From NCBI GenBank assembly GCA_964016885.1, contig OZ024743.1:257610001-257674000 (forward strand): a DNA stretch of 64,000 bases, in the 5' to 3' direction. Under the pieces are notes generated by a model, which saw only the letters and a program-made list of their open reading frames with translations, was not told where the DNA came from and did not search any database. Below, one piece after another: positions 1,833 through 53,879 of this stretch. The translations under genes and the position numbers were made by a program. Source of the DNA: Eledone cirrhosa. Its lineage: Eukaryota. Positions within the stretch are counted from its first letter, which is position 1. The number at the start of each line of letters is the position of its first letter.

Positions 1833-2168
1833 ATCATCATCATCATTTCATTTTACGTCCGCTTTTTCCCTGCCTGCAAGGGTGGGACGGGAACTGATTC
1901 TTGCTTGATTTCTACAGCTGGATGCCCTTCCTAACACCAACCTCATTTACAGTGAGTGCTGGGTGCTTTTTTGCCATGGCACCCCCACGACCACTTTGCA
2001 GTGGAATGATAGGGACTGGGGTCCCTCATTTCTACAGCTGAGTAAACTGGAGCAATGTCAAATAAAGTGCCTTGCTCAAGGAAACAACACATCACCCGGT
2101 CTGAGAATTGAACTCACAACCTTTCGATTGCAAGGCCAGTGCTCTAACCACTAAGCCATGTGCCTCCA
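1833..2168 (-). mobile_element. tRNA-derived SINE (CORE-like centre, RTE-type tail)
   Basis: Minus strand: A box TGGCTTAGTGG, B box GAGTTCAATTC, TCCTTGAGCAAGGCACTT, tail GGACGTAAAATG..(ATG)n; matches 39421-39745. Confidence 0.88.
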
Positions 2169-2228
2169 TATATACATATATATATATACGTATATATATA
2201 TATATATATATACATATATATACATATA

Positions 2229-2357
2229 TAACATATGTTGATGCCCTAAGGACAGACACTGGTCTGTTGGAGATGCAGGATATGGCAGCGATAATGAGGG
2301 ACAGAGACCGCTGGAGAGAACTCGTCCATGGATCTCGGGAATTTTACTCGCCTTAGA
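2229..2357 (+). mobile_element. Short RTE-like LINE 3' tail in (TA)n
   Basis: [10 protein letters not shown]...GSREFYSP*, same family as 29712-32957. Confidence 0.88.
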
Positions 2358-2409
<52 letters not shown>

Positions 2410-2410
2410 C

Positions 2411-2501
<91 letters not shown>

Positions 2502-2569
2502 TACATATATATATATACATATATATATATATACATATATATATACATATATATATATATACATATACA

Positions 2570-2601
<32 letters not shown>

Positions 2602-2636
2602 CATATATATACATATATATACACATATATATAAAC

Positions 2637-2717
<81 letters not shown>

Positions 2718-2767
2718 CATTTATATATATATACATATATATATACATATATGTATATATACATGCA

Positions 2768-4360
2768 CGCCATCTCACAGTCTGTGGCCTACTCCAGTGC
2801 CACGGAACCCCCGCCAATCGCCTTACGGTCGAACAACGAACTATCTTCATCTTACAGACCCACACTCCCCCCGGCCTGATCTCCCCACCCTTATTCCTTT
2901 AGTCTTCGACCGCACGCCTCCCCCCACACTTATCCCCCACTAACACCACTAACACACGCCTCCTTTTCACCGCCCACCCTACAACTAATAATACTAACAC
3001 CTCCACTCCCCCCCATCTGACCACCCTTCCCCAACTAACATACTAACATCCCTTCCCTCCCCTCTTCTCCTCCTCCCCCCTCCTTATCACACGCACACAC
3101 CCACCGGCACATATATACACGCGCTCTCACTAAACACACACCCTACTACCACCACTAACCCTCCCCTACACCCCCCACACCTCCATACCACCCCCCGCAA
3201 CTACACCCCCTAACCCCAAGCACACAAACACACGCACCCACTTACACCACCCACCCCACACGAAACTAACATCACTAACACCCCCCAACCCCACGCACGC
3301 GTACCCACACACCCTCGTACACCACCAACTCTACACACCCTACCACTACTAATCCCCACTCACACCTGCATTCCACCCCTCCCCACCTCCCGTATACTAA
3401 CACCCACTAACACCTCTTCATCAAAGTACACACACACCAGTACACCACACTCCCTTCATAGAACCACACACACCCTTCTCTCCCCGCCCCACCCACATCC
3501 TCGCTCCACACTCACTCATCCCACTAACACCCCTACTAATACACACACACACACCCTCCTCACTCCCACTTTCACACCTACCCATCCTTGACCAATAACC
3601 AATCCACTAAACATCTTCGGATTTTACCAACTTTTCAACCATCCTCTTACGTAATCACCTATATGACTCACCCACACACACACCCCCAAACATTTTTTTT
3701 CTCCACACGCCACCTACACCCACAACACGCTTAAACCCCACACACACGTGCTTCCCACCACATATCTACACCCTCAGCCTCCTGATTCCTCTCCCCCCAC
3801 CCCTCTATCCACACACGCACAGACACTCCGACCCACAAACCCCCCCCTCACACACCTCTTCCTGAACATGCAACCCCGTTCTTCCCCCAACCCTTACTTT
3901 CACATACACACACACACACACACACGCACACCTACACACACACACCACCTTCAGCCCTCCCCGCTCGGACACCCCGTCTCCCTCTCCCCACTCCACCCGC
4001 CACCACCCCTACACACCCCACACCCTTCCACCACCTGTTTAACCCCCTTTTAATTTCAGTTTATTTTGATCATGCCTTTATTTTTAAATTTATCTCATTC
4101 CTTGTATTTTGATCATGCTTTATTTTTATTTTTATCTTTATTTTTTATTTTTTCATTCGCACCGTTTCCTTTCGCTATATGTCTCTCCACCACTCCCCTA
4201 CACACCCTTTGAACTTTGTTCCCACACACTTCCCACCTGAGGAAGGGCTTATGCCCGAAACGTCGTCCCCCACCAACACCCCACTCCCAAGAGCGTGAAA
4301 TTAATAAACATTTGTTGTACTGCCTCTCTGTCTTGTCCCTGTTCAAATTTTTCCATTATA
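2768..4360 (+). mobile_element. 5'-truncated Penelope-like element (Neptune-like): GIY-YIG C-terminus, C/A-rich 3' region, HHR core, polyA signal
   Basis: 2771-2902 reads [36 protein letters not shown]...* (E..I..L.T..P.GL end of PLE endonuclease); HHR core 4237-4264; AATAAA 4303-4308. Confidence 0.8.
4235..4266 (+). ncRNA. Minimal PLE-type hammerhead core
   Basis: AC-CTGAGGA-a-GGGC ttat GCCC-GAAA-CG-TC-GT; palindromic ACGT stem III; stem I only 2 bp. Confidence 0.65.
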
Positions 4361-26816: not shown

Positions 26817-26824
<8 letters not shown>

Positions 26825-27850
26825 TAAATAACAGATTAAAGTTTAAGCAAAGAATCGCTGCTTTCACCCTTAACGGGATCTTCTGAAACTAACAAAGTCA
26901 ATCTGTAAACGCAGAACTGGATATTTCAAAAAACGTTGCAACCGGAGGAAGACAGGAAGACGATACTTTGGTTCGTGGTAACGTTCGCTGGCAAAGAACG
27001 GGAAAAAACGAATAATACGTCATTAATAGGAGCGGTGAAAAACAATTACACGCAAAGACAGAACCACATTTATGGTATAAAAGAGGTCGTAGACTAATGT
27101 TCTCTTAGGTGGTGCATAGAGACGTTCTCTGGCAATGAACGAAAAAACGAAGATAATAAGTCATATGTGGAGCGTGGGGAACAATAGCACGCAAAGACAA
27201 AACCACGTAAATGCTATAGCAGAAGTCGTAGACTAAAATTCTAACTAGGAGACCAAATGAATCTCCGCTACAGAGTTAAGAACATTTGTATTTGTTCTTA
27301 ACTAACTCTGTAGCGGAGATTCCTTTGGTCTCCTAGTTAGAATTTTAGTCTACGACTTCTGCTATAGCATTTACGTGGTTTTGTCTTTGCGTACTATTGT
27401 TCTCCACGCTCCACATATGACTTATTATCTTCGTTTTTTCGTTCATTGCCAGAGAACGTCTCTATGCACCACCTAAGAGACCATTAGTCTACGACCTCTT
27501 TTATACCATAAACGTGGTTCTGTCTTTGCGTGTAATTGTTTTTCACCGCTCCTATTAATGACGCATTATTCGTTTTTTCCCGTTCTTTGCCAGCGAACGT
27601 TACCACGAACCAAAGTATCGTCTTCCTGTCTTCCTCTGGTTGCAACGTTTTTTAAAATATCCAGTTCTGCGTTTACAGATTGACTTTGTTAGTTTCAGAA
27701 GATCCCGTTAAGGGTGAAAGCAGCGATTCTTTGCTTAAACTTTAATCTGTTATTTAATAAATATTTGCTCTACGGTTCTTATATATTTGATATATATTTA
27801 TCCTTATCGAGCCCTCTTTTGATTTTAGTCTTCAATTTTATTATTATTAC

Positions 27851-28815: not shown

Positions 28816-28891
<76 letters not shown>

Positions 28892-28972
28892 GATAAGCAG
28901 AACAAGCAAAATTCAAACAATTTTTTAAAAATAAATTAAAAAATATAATTTAAATATTTACCTACTCCAGTT

Positions 28973-29053
28973 GCTCTTACCGATCGGTTTCCCTTTACAA
29001 AACATTGGAAATCCATGGGATTTCCAATGTCAAAGTAAAGTTCATCAGAAAGC
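28973..29053 (-). ncRNA. Type I hammerhead ribozyme, copy 1
   Basis: Minus strand: GCTTT-CTGATGA-aCTTTAC..[ACATTGGAAATCC cat GGATTTCCAATGT]..GTAAAGg-GAAA-CCGATCGG-TA-AGAGC. Confidence 0.85.
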
Positions 29054-29459
29054 ATTTTCCTTTCCTAGGGCTAAAAGTCCCACGAACGGCAAAATATATT
29101 GCCATCTGCTAGCTAGCACAAGATCGAGTGAGGCCGAAAATTTGAACTGTACATGAACCAGTCCGTAGCAAAAGCGGAAGTAAACATAGAAGTGTTGTCT
29201 ACTACACTACTAAAAATAGCAGCCAAATAGAACAACAGATTTGTTCTCTACATAACGGAGAATATTAAAAGAAGTTAATATGCCCACGGGTACTAAGTAC
29301 CCCTGGAAATATATAGTTTGTCTATGATACAGGTTTGTTCAATGGTATTAATTTGACATACTAGAACTATAATATTAAGATAAGCAGAACAAGCAAAATT
29401 CAAACAATTTTTTAAAAATAAATTAAAAAATATAATTTAAATATTTACCTACTCCAGTT

Positions 29460-29540
29460 GCTCTTACCGATCGGTTTCCCTTTACAAAACATTGGAAATC
29501 CATGGGATTTCCAATGGAAAAGTAAAGTTCATCAGAAAGC
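29460..29540 (-). ncRNA. Type I hammerhead ribozyme, copy 2
   Basis: Same fold 487 nt away; differences confined to distal stem II. Confidence 0.85.
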
Positions 29541-29681
29541 ATTTTCCTTTCCTAGGGCTAAAAGTCCTAGGAACGGCAAAATATATTGCCATCTGCTAGC
29601 TAGCACAAGTTCGAGTGAGGCCGAAAATTTGACCTATACATGAACCAGTCCGTAGCAAAAGCGGAAGTAAACATAGACGCG

Positions 29682-33095
<3,414 letters not shown>

Positions 33096-33108
33096 TATAC
33101 ACACACAC

Positions 33109-33143
<35 letters not shown>

Positions 33144-33156
33144 CAGACATATATAT

Positions 33157-33192
<36 letters not shown>

Positions 33193-33220
33193 GTATATAT
33201 ATATATACACATATATATAT

Positions 33221-33326
<106 letters not shown>

Positions 33327-33607
33327 TATCATCAATATATATATATACATATATATATAAATATATATATACATATATATACATATATATATATATACAT
33401 ATATATTTACATATATATATACATATATATATACATATATCGTTTCTGAATTTGTTTGGTAAGATTCTTTATCTGAAACATGACCCTCCCAAAGTATAAC
33501 AATATATACACATATATATACATATATATATACCTATATATATATATATACATATATATATGCATATACATATATATATATAAATATATATATACATATA
33601 TATATAC

Positions 33608-33658
<51 letters not shown>

Positions 33659-33717
33659 TATATATAGATATATATATACATATATATATATATAAATATA
33701 TATACATATATATATAC

Positions 33718-33748
<31 letters not shown>

Positions 33749-34433
33749 ATTAAGTTAAAAATGTACATCCACATATGTATACTGAAATACTAGTATGCAT
33801 ATGAATACACACACGTATACATATGTAGATGTACCGAGTTTTTCACTGGTCACTTTACTGTGAGTGTCCAGCTATTCTGTATGTAAACACACAGACAAAC
33901 CGGTTTTTAGAGTCATACTGGTTTTTGAGGAAACACCTTTCCTCTATTCTCCAGAAAGCCAGACAAGGAATATTGAACTAGTTTCGATGTTGTTACATCT
34001 CATCAGCAATATTTACCTATCTTCCGGCCTTTCTAGAGAATCGTAAAAGCACATATCGTTATATGCTTTTTCTATGAAAATTAGTAGTGGGCAGACTAAT
34101 TTGCATAGAGCGTGAGTACGTACCGGTTCAACGGAGACGATAAAAACAAATAACGAAACGAAATTAAATTTCGTTTCGTTTGTAACTCACTTTTGTATGA
34201 CTGACGCTTAAACAATTAAGTTAAAAATGTACATCCACATATGTATACTGAAATACTAGTATGCATATGAATACACACACGTATACATATGTAGATGTAC
34301 CGAGTTTTTCACTGGTCACTTTACTGTGAGTGTCCAGCTATTCTGTATGTAAACACACAGACAAACCGGTTTTTAGAGTCATACTGGTTTTTGAGGAAAC
34401 ACCTTTCCTCTATTCTCCAGAAAGCCAGACAAG

Positions 34434-34439
<6 letters not shown>
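33749..34439 (-). mobile_element. Tandem repeat of a 466 nt unit (~1.5 copies) with a minimal HHR; retrozyme-like
   Basis: 33749-33973 repeats essentially identically at 34215-34439; (TA)n on both sides. Confidence 0.85.
33969..34013 (-). ncRNA. Minimal type I hammerhead ribozyme, fully canonical
   Basis: Minus strand: AATATTG-CTGATGA-GATGT aaca ACATC-GAAA-CTAG-TT-CAATATT; 7 bp stem I, palindromic ACTAGT stem III. Confidence 0.92.
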
Positions 34440-34530
<91 letters not shown>

Positions 34531-34832
34531 CATATCAATATATGATGGCTGCCCCCTTGTTATGGAGTATGGCCACTGCACGAGGAGAAAAAAAAATTAA
34601 TAAATAGATTAGAAATAAAATAAAAATAAAAAAAAGAAATATATATACATATATATATACATACACATACATATACATACATACACACACATATATACAC
34701 ACACATATATACATTAATAACAATAATAATAATAACAACAATAATAATAACGACAACAACAATAATAGTATACATATACATATATATATACACATACACG
34801 CACACACATAAACATATCTATACACACACACG

Positions 34833-37393
34833 ATAGCAACTAACAGCGCTGCGATCGAATGTGGCTTTTTAGCCCAGCCAATGATCTAAAATGTCTTGCA
34901 CAGAGTCGGCAACCAAAACATTCACTGGGAATAGTCGGCTGTGGTTGGAGTTTGTGTACTTCTGCATGTCGCTTGAGCCCTCCTGCTGATTTTCATTCTC
35001 TACCACATGTTTGGCAAGCATGATGAGTAGCATCTCCAACACAAGCCTGGTAGTCAACCACTGGTCTTACTTTATGACTGCGAAGATGACTTTCGAGTCC
35101 AGCTTTGCTTAGGCAGAGTCTCACACAGACGCTGCATGTCAGCACCATAGGAGGGCCCTCGCCGTCTGGAAGTGCAACAGCAATGCCCTTCCTCACATCC
35201 TGCTTTACTTTCTCGTATGCGATTCGAGATGCCTCAAAGGCAACTTTTCCCTCATATACATTCTTTCACCATTTATTACGATCAGCAGCAATATTTTCCC
35301 ATGTATCAGCAGAGATGTTAGCGTCTTTCAGAGAGGCTTTCAAGGAATCCTTATACCTCTTTTTTGGTTTATGTGGCGGTCGTTTTCCTTTAACCAACTC
35401 ACCATAAAAGAGTTGTTTTGGTATTCTAGAATCCTTCATCCTGGCAAGGTGACTACTCCAACGGAGTCGTTGCTTAAGCACAAGAGCTTCTATACTGTCA
35501 CACATAGAGCTTTCCAAAATCTCGACATCACTGATGTGGTCCCTCCAGTGAACGCCATGGATCCGTCTGAGACACATCTGATGGAAACACTCAAATTGCT
35601 TAAGGTGGTGTCGATATGTGACCCAAGTCTCGCAGGCATAAAGAAGACAAGAGAGCACACATGCCCTGTATACCTTTACCTTTGTCCTCCTGCATATGTC
35701 TCGCCGACCCCAGAGTCGCCTTTCTAGCTTTCCGAAAGCAACACTTGCTTTCCTAATCCTAAGTAAGATTTCACTGTCAAGGTTGCTGTATCGATTGACA
35801 GTGCTTCCCAGGTAGACAAACTGATCAACCACTCCAAGTCGTTTACCATACACATAGATATTTGGTTCAGTGTACTGCTTACCAGGGGCAGGTTGGTACA
35901 TGACGACGGTTTTCTTGAGACTGACAGTCAATCCTAGGGCAGTGCAAGCGTCAGAAAATGCATTCAAAATGTGCTGCATATCACTCTCTGTGTGCGCTAC
36001 AAGATCACAATCATCTGCATACAAGACGTCTCTTATGATTGATGTAAATACTTTTGTCTTTGCAGGAAAGCGCCTGATGTTAAATATGCTGCCTGAGGTT
36101 CGATATCGAATGTAAACACCATGCTCGCAATTCCTGAATGCAATACAGAAAACCATTGCAAAGTATATGGCAAACAGGGTCGGTGCTGGAATATCCCCCT
36201 GTTTCACTCCATTTTTTACTGAGATAGGCTCCGACATGTTACCTCCGACATTAACCCAAGCCTTCATGTCGTCATGGAAAGACCTAACTAAAGCAAGTAA
36301 CTTATCAGGGCAACCAAGTTTCTGGAGAACCTTCCATAATGCATCTCTGTTAACAGTATCGAAAGCTTTTGTCAGATCGACAAAAACCTGATACAGATCC
36401 AAGCCTTGTTCCATGCACTTCTCCTGGAGCTGTCTAGCTGAGAAGATCATATCAGTAATGCCGCGTCCAGCACGAAAACCAGATTGACTTTTAGGAAGAA
36501 CACAATCTGCAATGTGTGTCAGCAGACGGTCCAGAGGCACCCTACATAAAACTTTCCTTACGACAGAAAGCAATGATATACCTCTGTAGTTCCCACAATC
36601 ATTCCTGTTACCCTCTCCCTTGTACAAGACCACCATTACTGCATCTCTCCAGTCCTCAGGTACGGATTCATTAGCCCATATCCTGCCAAACAAAGAGTGA
36701 AGATGTAGCAGGAGTCTCTCACCACCATATTGTAGGAGCTCAGCATGTATGCCATCCGTACCTGGAGATCTTCCACTGTTCAGCTTCGAAATAGCCACTG
36801 CAACCTCCACAAGCGTCGGAGGTTCTGCGAGAGCTACTTTCACAGGACTTTCTGGAATGAGATTGAGGAAATCTTCACTGACGACAGACGGCTGATTCAA
36901 AAGATCATCAAAGTGCTCTCGCCGCCTTCGTAGAATTCCTTGTGAGTCACGAAGAAGTTCTTTGCCATCCTTGCTGTGAAGCGGTGTCACCAGAGAAGAA
37001 GACAGTCCATAAACCTCACGCAAGAGACTGTACAACAGCTTTGTGTTATTGGAATCTGACGCAGTTTGTATCTCACCAGCCTTCTCACTCCACCATCTGA
37101 AAAAGACTCCGCCTAACACGTGATTTTACATGCTTGAGTTCCTCAAGCAACGTATTCCTCTCCTGTGGTTTTGCCGTCAAGTAGCGTGACAGAGCACGCC
37201 TCTTATCAGCCAACAAGTCTGCTATATGTACATCATTCTCATTAAACCAGTCCCGATGTTTTCTCTGCACCAATGCCAGAACACGCCTGCCTACATCATA
37301 AACCGACTTTTTAAGGGTCGGCCAATCCTTACCAAGATCTGCAGCCTGCATCTCTTCTTCCAATGTCCTCTTCACATTTTTATCCTTAAGACG
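34833..37393 (-). mobile_element. 5'-truncated RTE/BovB-like LINE with C-terminal C2H2 fingers
   Basis: 617 aa RT ORF (NYRGISLL, FVDLTKAFD, GVKQG, YADD, FVYLGS, PKQLFYGEL) followed by C..C.........L.SH.RSH and a second finger with a stop. Confidence 0.92.
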
Positions 37394-37403
37394 ATATATG
37401 TAT

Positions 37404-48160: not shown

Positions 48161-48966
48161 AATTTATTAATGAATGGACAGTTATATGACCTCCTTTTCA
48201 GCCAAGAGACATACCGATACATATGCAAATATTGTGGGGCAACATTCATTACAGAATTTAGAGTGGCAGTACACACTTCGAGATTACATTCATATTAAAA
48301 GGTACAATCAAAAATCAAAAATACAGGTTAAAATACAACATGAAGATAAGCGGTTATATAGTGCAAATGCTATATGTGTGGCAAGCACGTGCGTCTTGTT
48401 TATATAGTGTGGCAGAGAGATACGTGTAGTAGAGGCACTTAGGTAGGTAAACAAGAGTGTTAGGTTGGTTGATCTGGTGGCAAATTCTTTATATGATTGA
48501 TATAGTCTGTGTGTGGAGAAATGATATAAGCATTAAAAATAGTGCAAGCATTAAAAGTATTGGAGATGCACAGCGAAGGGATGACAAGTACTTCATGTAC
48601 TTCGACATTTTCATGGTCAGGGGAGTGTATTTTTCGATTATATGCCAGTCACATAATCGACGACAATTCGATATTGAGCGTTTGACAATCCAGTTAGAGA
48701 ATCGTAGTCCGATGTTCTTTAGTTCAATACAGGAGGCTGTTACGTTTCGAGAAACGACATTGAATACCACCCGGAAGTGTGTGTGTGGCTAAGGGGAGTT
48801 AATACATGAGGGGAGCTGACTCCGGGGTTTCTATACCTAGCTATTGAAATGTGTCTCAAAATAGACCCTAATTTCTATGGTTATGCGCAACTTCCAAAAA
48901 ATGTTTAAAGCATAAAGTGTTTTAACTATAGAGTAGTTTAATTAAGTTGTGCTGAAGGTGTTCGTA

Positions 48967-49346
48967 TTAGTATTGTGAGTTTTTGCTAAATATGTTTGCG
49001 TCATAGGACAGACTAGAGATTCTATTGGACACCCCCTTAGAGATAGAGTTTAATATTGATCTAGGGTGATTAGACTTGGTATCTACGTAAATGAGTTTTT
49101 CGTTAGGCTTATGGAAAGGTGTATATATTTTTGAGTCTAGGTATAGTGTGGCGTCTAGGAAGTTAACATTTTTAGTGTTTTTGTCCATGGTGATACTAAG
49201 GTTAAAGTTTTTGAATGTCTTATGCAATTGTTTTCTAGTTCTTTCTATATTAAATTTTTTATATTCTATAAGTAAAAGTGCATCATCGCGGTACAAACCA
49301 CCGTTGAGGTAAGGGAGGTCCTTATGGATTTCATTGAGAAGGTATA
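48967..49346 (-). pseudogene. PLE reverse transcriptase fragment (YRDD)
   Basis: GGLYRDDAL...VNFLDATL...PFHKPNEKLIYVDTKSNHP...RISSLS, typical of the Naiad RT palm/thumb. Confidence 0.88.
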
Positions 49347-49349
49347 AGA

Positions 49350-49877
49350 AATAACACCGGGGTTGACAACCCGAATGTCCAAAATCCTATAGCTACCACC
49401 CAGACTTCTGCACTGCATTATAACCAGCAGACTAACAGACAGGATAATTGTAACTGTAGAGCTAATAGAACCTGCCCTTTAGATAAACAATGCCTAACCA
49501 AGGATATCATATACTCATGCACCGTCACAACTAGCAACTCTTCAGAAACCTATGTAGGCTCCACTTCTAACTGCTTCAAAATAAGATATAATTCGCACAT
49601 CCACTCGTTCAAAAAGCACAGCCTAGCCAACTCCACCTCACTTTCTAGCTACATACACTATCTAAAAACTAAAAATAAACCATACACACTCAAATGGGAA
49701 GTGATAGGCAGCGCGACCTCGTACAAACCACCTAATAAATTTTGTAACCTCTGTATACTAGAGACCCACAATATTATCTTCTCCAACCGTAACCTACTTA
49801 ACAAAAAATCTGAGGTGTCTGCAACTTGCCAGCACCGCTTCAGACATCCCTTCCAAAACTTTAAGCCCAATATATAG
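49350..49877 (+). CDS. PLE GIY-YIG endonuclease, open frame without ATG (absent from the ORF track)
   Basis: CNCRANRTCPLDKQCLTKDIIYSCTV...YVGSTSNCFKIRYNSH..SF...STSLSSYIH.LK...KWEVI...CNLCILE...LLNKKSEV..TCQH*. Confidence 0.9.
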   Translation, partial: NNTGVDNPNVQNPIATTQTSALHYNQQTNRQDNCNCRANRTCPLDKQCLTKDIIYSCTVTTSNSSETYVGSTSNCFKIRYNSHIHSFKKHSLANSTSLSSYIHYLKTKNKPYTLKWEVIGSATSYKPPNKFCNLCILETHNIIFSNRNLLNKKSEVSATCQHRFRHPFQNFKPNI

Positions 49878-51317
49878 CAATGTCGGACTTGAACCAAACA
49901 CCACATCTAGCATCAAACACCAGGGGCACACCTTATACCACATACCCAAACACTAACTGATCTAATATAACACAAACAACGACATCCCTCTGGAACCCTT
50001 CGCAGGGAGAATACCCATTTATACCTCTACGTCAGGTTTGACAACATCCACCCACTTGAACTGCACTACACCGCTCTATAGGTAATTTGAACATGATTTG
50101 ATTGGTTTGGTAGTGTTGTGCGGAGGAAGTGCCTTCCTTAGACAGATGTAAAACGATTTAATCTAGTAACGCTGTTGAGCAGTATGACCGGTACGCTGAG
50201 CGCAGAGACTGAATGTATTGCAACTGGCGTGCGGGTTGTACATATATGGATGATTTGGCGGTCAGAGAGGGGTCGTGAAGACTGAGGATTGACCTCTGGC
50301 CGGACCTGGTGATGATTATCTTTCGACATCCAATGTAGCAAGCGATGACCCAGAACGTACCAGAGATCATTGTGTCTTGAAGTGATTCTGCAATCACCGC
50401 GCCTGGTCCTATGAGTAGACTACAACCACAGAGATCATTAATTTAGAATCCTCGCTCATCGTCTATAATATTCATTTGTGGCACCCTACGATGGGAGTTA
50501 ATTCACCATAATAATACGAATACCTTCAGCACAACTTAATTAAACTACTCTATAGTTAAAACACTTTATGCTTTAAAAATTCTTTGGAAGTTGCGCATAA
50601 CCATAGAAATTAGGGTCTATTTTGAGACACATTTCAATAGCTAGGTATAGAAACCCCGGAGTTAGCTCCCCTCATGCATTAACTCCCCTTAGCCACACAC
50701 ACACTTCTGGGTGGTATTCAATGTCGTTTCTCGAAACGTAACAGCCTCCTGTATTGAACTAAAGAACATCGGACTACGATTCTCTAACTGGATTGTCAAA
50801 CGCTCAATATCGAATTGTCGTCGATTATGTGAGGGGCATATAATCGAAAAATACACTCCCCTGACCATGAAAATGTCGAAGTACATGAAGTACTTGTCAT
50901 CCCTTCGCTGTGCATCTCCAATACTTTTAATGCTTGCACTATTTTTAATGCTTATATCATTTCTCCACACACAGACTATATCAATCTTATAAGGAATTTT
51001 CCACCAGATCAACCAACCTAACACTCTTGTTTACCTACCTAAGTGCCTCTACTACACGTATCTCTCTGCCACACTATATAAACAAGACGCACGTGCTTGC
51101 CACACATATAACATTTGCACTATATAACCGCTTATCTTCATGTATTTTAACCTGTATTTTTGATTTTTGATTGTACCTTTTAATATGAATGTAATCTCGA
51201 AGTGTGTACTGCCACTCTAAATTCTGTAATGAATGTTGCCCCACAATATTTGCATATGTATCGGTATGTCTCTTGGCTGAAAAGGAGGTCATATAACTGT
51301 CCGTTCATTAATAAATT

Positions 51318-51362: not shown

Positions 51363-53879
51363 ACAATAATGTTTTGAACAGTTCTTTGATTCTTATATTT
51401 CATATATATATATATATATATAAATAATTGAGAGAGAGAGAAATAGATGGATAGATATTTATAAGAGAATGAAAAGTGCTCAAACACAGAAAAATAACTG
51501 CAATTGAGTGTGTGTGTATGTATATATATACATATATATATATACAAGCAATAGGCTCCAACAATTTCTATCTACTGAATTCCACTCATACAGCACTGGT
51601 CAATCCAAGATTGTAATCAAAACATTTGACAAACGTGCTGTACAATGGAATTGAATCCAGAAACACATGGTTGTGAAATTAACTCCTTTACCATACAACT
51701 TTGCCAGCACCTTTAAAGAAATTATCTGGATTTAATCTAGTGCTTCTCTATATTAGAAGCAATTCATGATAAAAATAGTTTTGAGACTTTAGTGAGGATA
51801 GTTACTCTATCTTTGTCGACTGAACATTTTAGTTTTATGTTCGAGAGAAGAGATTATGATTAGATAAATACCGACAACAACAAATGGAATTGTTTGGCTT
51901 TCTTAATCAGATGTTTTATATTGTACTCAATATCATAAGACTGTAGATCACTATATTGTTTCATTCAACACATATATATTGTCTATGTAGGTGTGTGTCT
52001 TTCTCTATATATCATCATCATTTTCCTTCTATTTCCCATACTTGCATGGTATGCGTGTGTATCTATATGTGTTTATATATATATGTGTGTGTGTGGGTAG
52101 GGGTGTCAGGTTTAATTGTGGGAAACCACCGTAAGTAAGGTACTCAATACATTAGTAGAGTGTATAAAAAGAAAATAATATAGAAAGGCGTCTACAGGAC
52201 TAGAACTGTTTCATTTGAAGGAAATCATCAGATATATATACATCATATGTATATATATGAGCAAATTCACTATTTTATTAAAATTGTGCTTTGTACTGAT
52301 ATATTATATGTTCCTATAGTATATATGTAGAGTAGATAAGGTACCAGGTTTAAAATACCCAAGACACACTGTATCAGACAGCACCTTTACAGTTGAGTTA
52401 TAGATCCTTTACCACTTTTTTTTATATATTCTCATCATCGTTTAATGGCTGTATTTCTAGAAATAGAAACTGCAGATGATCCCTGATTTGTGGAGATAAT
52501 TAAATACAAGTATCACCAATGGAAGATCCTACTATCTATTGTATGGATTATAATTTATCTATTTAGTACCAGTTATATCTGAGAATGTGAGAAGTAAATC
52601 ATGAACTGTCATCCCTAATATTAGATCTAAATTTGACACAGCTATCAGTTGTTTAATTTAACAGTCTTTTAATCTCTGGGGGCGAATGGGGGAAAGGATG
52701 GTAGTAGCAGCTGTCCATTACCAGAACATAAATTGAAAGAAGGATTTCTTTGGAAGCTCTTAAAGAGTCTGTCATTCAACCAACTCCATCTTTCTAACGT
52801 AGTTTATTTTAATTTTATCTTTTTAAAAGTTTAATTTGTCTTATACTTGGAAAGTGTCTGGACAACCTTATTTAGTATGTTAGAAGCAGATGTTAATCTT
52901 TGCCTCATAAAAAATATATATTCTATATATATATATGTATAGATGGATAGATGTTTTCTCTCTTAGTTTTGAGTTTAATTTTGACTGGCCACCTTCCTGG
53001 TGGCAAGGTTGTAAAGGAAATTATCATCATCTCTTGTGTAAGCATGCATCTTTTAAATTGTAAAGAATATTTTACAAATTTTTAAGGTTCCAGATATCGT
53101 GGACATTTATAGCTTATGAATTAAGGAGTGATGTACTTTTTCCCCAAATCCTAGTTCAGTTATAGTTCAGGCAGGTTGGTATATAACCTGTAGTATGCAT
53201 ATATATATGCATGTATATACATATAACTGGCTATTGATTCTGCATGATTGGTGTGCATTCGGTCCATGATTCTGGTATAGACCACCCTATTTTTTAAAGC
53301 ATGTATCTAGGATTATATTATTCATTATATCTTTAAAAGAACAGATTGTTATTTGGCTGCTATTTTGAAGAGGTTCAGTGACTGTATAAAAAATCCAACC
53401 TCATATGTATATAAAGATGAACAGACAACATTATATAAAGTCAAACAGACGGACCATTATAGTGAAGGAAGATAAGACAAAGAATGAAAAGGGGTGAGAA
53501 AAAGAAGGAAAAAGGACAAAAATTAAAACTATAAAAAATTGTGAACAAACCTCATCCACACAAAAAAAAGTGGAGAGGAGAAATTAAAGGCTGCAAGACA
53601 AAAGCATCACAAACAAGTGTCACCACAAGTGCAACACAATCAACACCCACGCACCACAATAACAACAAAAGCAAACACAACACAGAAAAAAAACATTAAA
53701 ACTACATGGCCATAAACACAAAAAATACAGAACTAATGGAATACATAAAAACACACACAACCATTACACAAGCAGATTTTCCAACATCCACAATCCCCAT
53801 ACCTACACACATACAAATCATTCAGACAACACAAGGCACATATAATCATCTAAAAACTAAATTCCCAAAGGAAATCAGT

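Follow-up and report, generated by a model that had tools for sequence, protein, structure and literature searches.

The insertion at positions 33748..34439 (minus strand) of the 64,000-nt stretch of Eledone cirrhosa DNA analyzed here, which we call the window, is in our judgment quite probably a copy of a young, non-coding, high-copy 466-nt retrozyme that carries a predicted hammerhead ribozyme and is likely copied into nicked (TA)n by the RT and endonuclease of a PLE acting in trans. Judged from its sequence, the family is one of the non-LTR retrozymes, a group already described, and its genomic evidence for priming of the PLE type is unusually clear. What says most about the mechanism was absent from the first-pass annotation of this DNA: two fixed 3' reverse-transcription start sites, the head-to-head inversions that involve them, and a PLE-type tail.

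A 466-nt tandem unit with near-identical repeats in a (TA)n setting, as that annotation described, is borne out. The insertion has an A-B-A layout with a period of 466 nt (the next-best period matched 38%), its two repeats (33748-33973 and 34214-34439) are identical across 226 nt, and both flanks are (TA)n. Its parts are as follows:

33748..34439, minus strand: whole insertion, 1.48 units of the 466-nt non-coding retrozyme unit (locus L063)
34214..34439, minus strand: segment A, first copy (unit positions 3-228), identical to 33748-33973
33748..33973, minus strand: segment A, second copy (unit positions 3-228), ending at the proximal 3' site
34437..34441, minus strand: 5' junction, lying some 2 nt past the equivalent cut site at 34441, with ATAT microhomology to (TA)n
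34436..34543, no strand: (TA)n target tract on the 5' side
32959..33748, no strand: (TA)n-rich target tract on the 3' side
33969..34013, minus strand: type I hammerhead, predicted cut between 33976 (U17) and 33975

Counted from the predicted cut, the insertion runs from unit position 3 to position 228 of the next unit, and has neither an inverted arm nor a tail. Since its 5' end is 34439 and the equivalent first post-cut base is 34441, the earlier claim of a start about 2 nt from the equivalent cut site holds for this copy, with the exact junction uncertain by a few nucleotides because it sits in the ATAT microhomology. The unit is non-coding, all six translated frames being closed by many stops, and the element has no RT plus GIY-YIG ORF of its own, as an autonomous PLE would. 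TG...CA ends are absent, and the number of units varies among copies. Two LINE-like RT elements, both broken, lie on either side of the insertion (31000-32958, plus strand; 34900-37400, minus strand), the left one ending in the shared (TA)n tract.

In the hammerhead, stem I pairs AAUAUUG with CAAUAUU (34013-34007 with 33975-33969), the core continues with CUGAUGA from 34006, stem II (GAUG/CAUC) and GAAA, and a palindromic ACUAGU forms helix III at 33982-33977. The predicted cut is GUU^C, with 33975 as the first post-cut base. Helix I has 7 bp, helix II 4 bp, and helix III 1-2 bp with a palindromic loop; by the helix sizes in PMC4209133, the predicted motif falls among the canonical type I hammerheads of metazoans and not among the PLE min-HHRs. 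PLE min-HHRs have a helix II of 7-8 bp, a helix I of 4-5 bp and an unpaired base 5' of stem II, whereas the motif of the 466-nt unit has canonical helix sizes and no extra base before stem II; the two are alike in their unstable palindromic helix III, for which dimer action has been proposed (PMC4209133). The first-pass call of a canonical minimal hammerhead at 33969-34013 (minus strand) was thus right as to ribozyme and position, but its assignment to the minimal, PLE-type class fails on helix sizes. Across the whole window Rfam gave no match at gathering score; the best sub-threshold match was Hammerhead_HH9 (33953-34024, minus strand; E 1.8e-7, 36.5 bits where the cut-off is 52), and sub-threshold miRNA and sRNA matches were set aside as attributable to TA-rich hairpins.

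Variation was scored on 328 ribozyme-shaped motifs within the fetched loci. The cut base H17 is U in 191 of these, C in 116, A in 17 and G in 4, and the ACUAGU palindrome, which had already been pointed out as stem III, is retained in 315. An A-U/U-A swap in stem II divides 285 segments into 143 and 140, with 2 mismatched, and core positions vary by 0.3%, compared with an all-site mean of 3.0% (median 0.6%). Between the 466-nt family and a sister family, 6 of 12 stem pairs have changed on both sides and the core is kept. Stem covariation is 0.49 against 0.19±0.03 in shuffled data (0 of 500 shuffles reach it), the independent events being few because the sequences compared come from two related families and a few subfamilies. 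Taken together, the ribozyme looks selected. Its cleavage would probably be dimeric, via ACUAGU, and inefficient; an unconstrained co-fold prediction for two ribozymes lacked the dimer conformation, which speaks neither for nor against it, and in a test of Xenopus retrozymes 8 of 9 dimers failed to cleave in vitro (10.64898/2026.07.22.740005).

Sequence-pattern searches of the 3.0-Gb genome returned 9,238 matches to the ribozyme with its main variants and 965 to the exact variant in the window, and copies range from single units up to arrays of 31 and of over 70 units. The window copy is young, since its nearest relatives among 151 full segments differ from its unit by 1 nt. The proposal of a recent, retrozyme-type reverse transcript therefore stands as regards a recent, hammerhead-bearing tandem unit, on the strength of these 1-nt neighbours and the apparently selected ribozyme, but the 5'-end argument made for it is weaker than supposed. 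The sister family is 60–65% identical and has equivalent 3' ends, inversions and a ribozyme of its own, with the same core and different stems. It is a tandem family with a unit of about 455-465 nt (L098 1761-3758, L122 1980-3282, L109, L046, L048 and L092), has a hammerhead with a GUA^C cut whose stem II carries a U-U at its base, and often shares (TA)n tracts with the 466-nt family.

An assembly artefact at the level of the family was rejected: contigs from independent public runs hold the unit together with (TA)n junctions at 34139-34141 and 34209, and loose (TA)n ends occur at 34209 in run X1 and at 34139-34141 in X1 and X8. Among the public-run records examined, no contig spanned the 33748-34439 insertion itself. 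Runs X4-X19, labelled as 15 other organisms, contain near-identical sequence, often at low depth and in some cases as one closed unit-length contig; these occurrences may reflect relatives, transfer or contamination. The raw reads of X23 gave 0 hits, to which we attach no weight, and no run listed as containing the element was recorded as RNA. Closed contigs of 495/496 nt (the unit plus 30) in X5 and X6 could equally come from a tandem array or a circle, the run type being unrecorded.

The fixed boundary of the family is its 3' end, not its 5' end. Copies end either 228-233 or 302 nt past the cut, joined to (TA)n, and long arrays too retain both of these ends. The 3' junction of the window copy (unit position 228 plus TA) occurs at 357 places genome-wide and the second 3' junction (unit position 302 plus TA) gives 2,236 matches; the exact 5' junction of the window copy occurs at only 5 places. 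Internal copies of both ends, 69-74 nt apart and so bounding a tail, lie within the insertion beside predicted structures:

34209..34214, minus strand: internal copy of the proximal 3' end (unit positions 228-233), putative reverse-transcription start site 1
34139..34141, minus strand: internal copy of the distal 3' end (unit position 302), putative start site 2
34229..34300, minus strand: long TA-rich hairpin (unit positions 142-213), predicted fold, ending 15 nt before start site 1
33763-33834, minus strand: second copy of the hairpin at unit positions 142-213, predicted fold
34152..34180, minus strand: 13-bp hairpin (unit positions 262-290), ending 12 nt before start site 2
34195..34384, minus strand: predicted long-range helix, unit positions 58-65 (34384-34377) with 240-247 (34202-34195)

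Both start sites thus lie 12-15 nt behind predicted hairpins, on either side of the long-range helix, and compensatory changes keep the pairing of that helix in the sister family (alignment columns 63-70 with 276-283). The hairpin at unit positions 262-290 is a hotspot of fold-back inversion junctions.

We sampled 90 places with the 228 end and 60 with the 302 end, all on contigs C1-C2, and analyzed 149 after one duplicate was dropped; these anchored samples were picked for a TA flank, so that non-TA targets are undercounted. A head-to-head inverted arm was present in 107 of the 149 loci. When the anchor was 228, the partner arm ended at 296-303 in 60 of 64 closed cases; when it was 302, the partner ended at 223-233 in 35 of 40. 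Like-with-like pairing of ends was never seen among closed inversions. Five 302-anchored arms (L059, L070, L085, L102 and L118) stop at unit positions 228-234, i.e. at the other start site, and may fit twin priming on one RNA.

This anatomy, with its partial tandems, inverted truncated copy, one-ended tail and microsatellite targets, corresponds to that of PLEs (PMC8557442, PMC11167929). In vitro, the Poseidon PLE PAc primes at two internal sites that bound a tail (PMC11167929). As in EN+ PLEs (PMC11167929, PMC8557442), two RT start sites downstream of the hammerhead define the tail, the targets are AT-rich, tandems are partial, the inverted copy is 5'-truncated, and the tail is at one end only. 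Naiad elements target (TA)n and have no canonical hammerheads (PMC8557442). The 466-nt family differs from PLEs in lacking an ORF and in the length of its tail (69-74 nt, compared with 30-40 nt in PLEs), and, while no strand difference was seen for PAc in vitro, it pairs one arm per start site in nearly all inversions.

That the element might instead be mobilized by a LINE in the manner of a SINE, or be a DNA satellite or a miniature LTR element with an incidental ribozyme, strikes us as highly improbable. The flanking LINE-like RT ORFs also end in (TA)n, and the A-B-A layout resembles terminal direct repeats; these readings, however, fit poorly with start sites that are internal and fixed, with the absence of poly(A), with head-to-head arms that have a one-sided tail, and with a covarying ribozyme. 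The variable unit number and the missing TG...CA ends weigh against them as well, and on these grounds the miniature LTR element was rejected.

We then turn to the 5' ends, for which a boundary at the cut had been claimed and a tabulation of all copies proposed. Before counting, we dropped L001-L030 (one array), L061-L065 (chosen on their 5' end) and L157 (a duplicate of L156), together with 9 arms that run off their locus and 3 inverted arms shorter than 40 nt. The ends are mostly scattered: about 90% of the 244 closed arm ends lie outside the cut-adjacent interval, so that the idea that all copies start at the cut was rejected. At unit positions 1-21, i.e. no more than 21 nt after the cut, there are 23 ends, where 8.1 were expected from neighbouring intervals (p 5e-5) and 10.3 by a per-nucleotide hazard model (p 4e-4), the 21-nt width having been picked after the data were seen. 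Only 2 of the 244 ends fall in the 21 nt before the cut, and 3 lie at unit positions 442-462, where 9.9 were expected. The tabulation is thus weakly positive, with a roughly two-fold excess near the cut across the family, but it yields no rule for all copies.

Genome-wide counts of TA-flanked 5' junctions give at least 42 distinct places for unit positions 1-21 (among 100 of 115 matches listed), against 20 places for a control interval at 37-57 and 13 for the 21 nt before the cut, 12 of these 13 lying no more than 9 nt from it. Reverse-strand rows, taken one per place, number at least 19, 11 and 4, respectively. Most ends are scattered and an intact ribozyme was read through in 164 of the 244 arms, so that the footprint of cleavage is weak at most. 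The weak excess also sets the family apart from PAc, whose RNA-seq data had no excess of ends at the ribozyme site (PMC11167929).

The excess near the cut has two readings. Weighing it against the total, we slightly favour a cut-derived 5' end for the window copy; such an end would imply a linear, partly cleaved template, since a circle has no 5' end. It is also a credible, if not our preferred, explanation that RT stalled at stem I and a helix predicted by folding between unit positions 13-30 and 400-418, the cDNA then being joined via the ATAT microhomology. Ends in the excess range from about -9 to +22, favour T/A microhomology and do not peak sharply at +1, as stalling would allow, and a hairpin that is no part of the ribozyme (unit positions 262-290) gives an equal peak, with 25 arm ends at 253-273 against 11.1 expected. 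Stalling accounts less well for the sparseness of ends just upstream of the cut, for the closeness to the cut of nearly all TA-flanked junctions upstream of it, and for the stronger hairpin at 142-213, which has no 5'-end peak.

The arrays bear on whether the template is a circle. Divergence among units is 0.56% inside an arm, 0.95% from one arm to the other and 4.8% from locus to locus; for the closest unit at a different locus it is 0.47% on average, the within-locus figures being inflated by alignment overrun. In 16 of 117 multi-unit loci, a variant that is private to the locus within the sample is fixed in all copies, in 9 of them in both arms. All 17 complete units of one insertion are identical over both arms, as are 5 of 5 and 4 of 4 in other two-armed insertions, and one unit sequence per insertion is what the DNA contains. 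Older arrays, in contrast, are heterogeneous, with 19 distinct sequences among 30 units and 21 among 54. This difference favours repeated copying of a monomer template, and we lean towards a circular one. Folded as a circle, the monomer is predicted to form stems I and II with a z-score of -10.8, to which palindromic TA-rich hairpins contribute. Circles have been proposed as templates of copies longer than one unit in work on PLE min-HHRs (PMC4209133).

A competing account, which we consider unlikely, keeps PLE priming and dispenses with the circle: long linear, mostly uncut read-through transcripts would be the templates, and arrays would grow by unequal crossing-over after insertion. It gains from the frequency with which arms pass an intact ribozyme; from in vitro work on a PLE in which unprocessed RNA was the main substrate and ribozyme mutants had no effect on insertion (PMC11167929); and from the window copy itself, whose 5' end, if cut-derived, requires linear RNA. 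Higher-order repeats (periods 4, 2, 3 and longer) in arrays L083, L068, L226 and L219-L221 also speak for it. It must, however, explain two-armed insertions of one exact sequence beside heterogeneous older arrays, and variants specific to a locus that are fixed in both of its arms; for a linear template, a source of at least 12 units, all perfectly alike, would be required. The higher-order repeats could reflect multimeric circles or DNA-level expansion, and since one arm of L080 mixes two subfamilies as well, DNA-level expansion or multimeric templates also act. Assembly polishing could have homogenized some arrays.

Returning to the circular monomer, the cycle might run as follows. Tandem copies would be transcribed, and the ribozyme would cut inefficiently, probably as an ACUAGU dimer, yielding linear multimers and monomers, the latter being ligated into circles. 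A PLE protein dimer would bind the structured 228-302 region and prime cDNA internally at two sites, one per target strand, and long homogeneous arms would arise by rolling round the monomer circle. The window copy would have been primed at 228, have passed one intact ribozyme and have ended some 2 nt before reaching the next cut. Its template would most simply be a linear, partly cleaved RNA with a cut 5' end, a view to which we give a narrow preference; otherwise the copy would be an ordinary truncation aided by the ATAT microhomology. As a tentative whole, for which we claim somewhat less than an even chance, we propose two-ended rolling-circle retrotransposition, in which one 466-nt ribozyme-made circle is copied by a PLE dimer from two fixed sites, one per target strand, while a minority of linear RNAs that the ribozyme has opened give 5' ends at the cut.

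We searched for an autonomous PLE partner. Locus L141 contains a 780-aa RT ORF (1882-4224; Pfam RVT_1, E 2e-7) in which we recognized by eye what we take to be GIY-YIG and CxxC motifs. Among 124 scored matches to this type of RT (of 32,544 candidates), identity is 98–100% and the matched stretch is stop-free; L141 and L186-L215 form a young PLE-type RT family with an open frame of about 777 aa. No hammerhead was seen in the 330 nt after the L141-family stop, and in 30 loci of this family nothing outside TA-rich stretches was significantly similar to the unit. Five other PLE-like fragments (43–57% identical) bore no resemblance to the unit by eye. A partner with a homologous pLTR was, therefore, not found among one PLE family and five fragments.

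Compared with the metazoan non-LTR retrozymes, which are tandem hammerhead units expressed as circular RNA (PMC7229834), the family is alike in its non-coding tandem type I hammerhead units, its low GC content, its range from dimers to tens of units and its highly self-paired monomer, the absence of LTR, PBS and PPT being judged here from the missing TG...CA ends and the variable unit number. Like axolotl HHR_Amex1, it has a 1-bp helix III with a palindromic tetraloop (PMC7229834). Its unit, at 466 nt, is longer than the 150-450 bp given in that work, where circular RNA was shown; families of up to 972 bp are described in a 2026 preprint. Fixed start sites, a tail, inversions and (TA)n targeting are features of the 466-nt family that we did not find in the available part of PMC7229834. 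The 2026 preprint regards retrozymes as non-autonomous PLEs, from co-occurrence and pLTR homology in Xenopus; we reach the same conclusion of a PLE derivative from insertion anatomy, having found no homologous pLTR. In the literature searched, as far as the sources were available and supplements aside, no retrozyme with insertion-level PLE priming, a rule of one of each start site, or an excess of ends at the cut was described.

Several other elements share the window. At 28885-29682 (minus strand), a second A-B-A element with a period of 487 (302 of 311 nt identical) lies between (TA)n tracts and has two hammerhead-like motifs (CUGAUGA at 29535 and 29048) whose stem II is very long and whose helix III is the palindromic ACCGAUCGGU; it is probably another retrozyme family. 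A head-to-head inverted repeat at 26817-27764, also between (TA)n tracts, has 462-nt arms (98%), a 24-nt spacer and an internal 139-nt tandem, a PLE-like geometry in which a search for the hammerhead pattern found none. Inverted 644-nt arms (98%) at 48338-51143 surround 1.5 kb with fragments that by eye resemble a PLE RT and GIY-YIG and have no match to the L141 protein. Further hammerhead-like motifs occur at 52231 (minus), 137 (plus), 4237 (plus) and 13670 (minus), the one at 137 recurring in L042, L088 and L128.

The family bears on three questions: by which route retrozymes insert, whether circles serve as templates, and whether ribozyme cutting is part of the cycle. To these it brings start sites at nucleotide level, an inversion rule that strictly pairs the two sites, two-armed arrays of homogeneous units and an excess of ends at the cut that can be measured. 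Because the start sites and the inversion rule are known, a small RNA substrate for in vitro priming (unit positions 58-302) is defined. If true, two-ended rolling-circle copying would produce head-to-head arrays in which identical units number up to tens, would account for the one-sided tail, and would provide direct genomic evidence of the circular template that has long been suggested for both retrozymes and PLEs.
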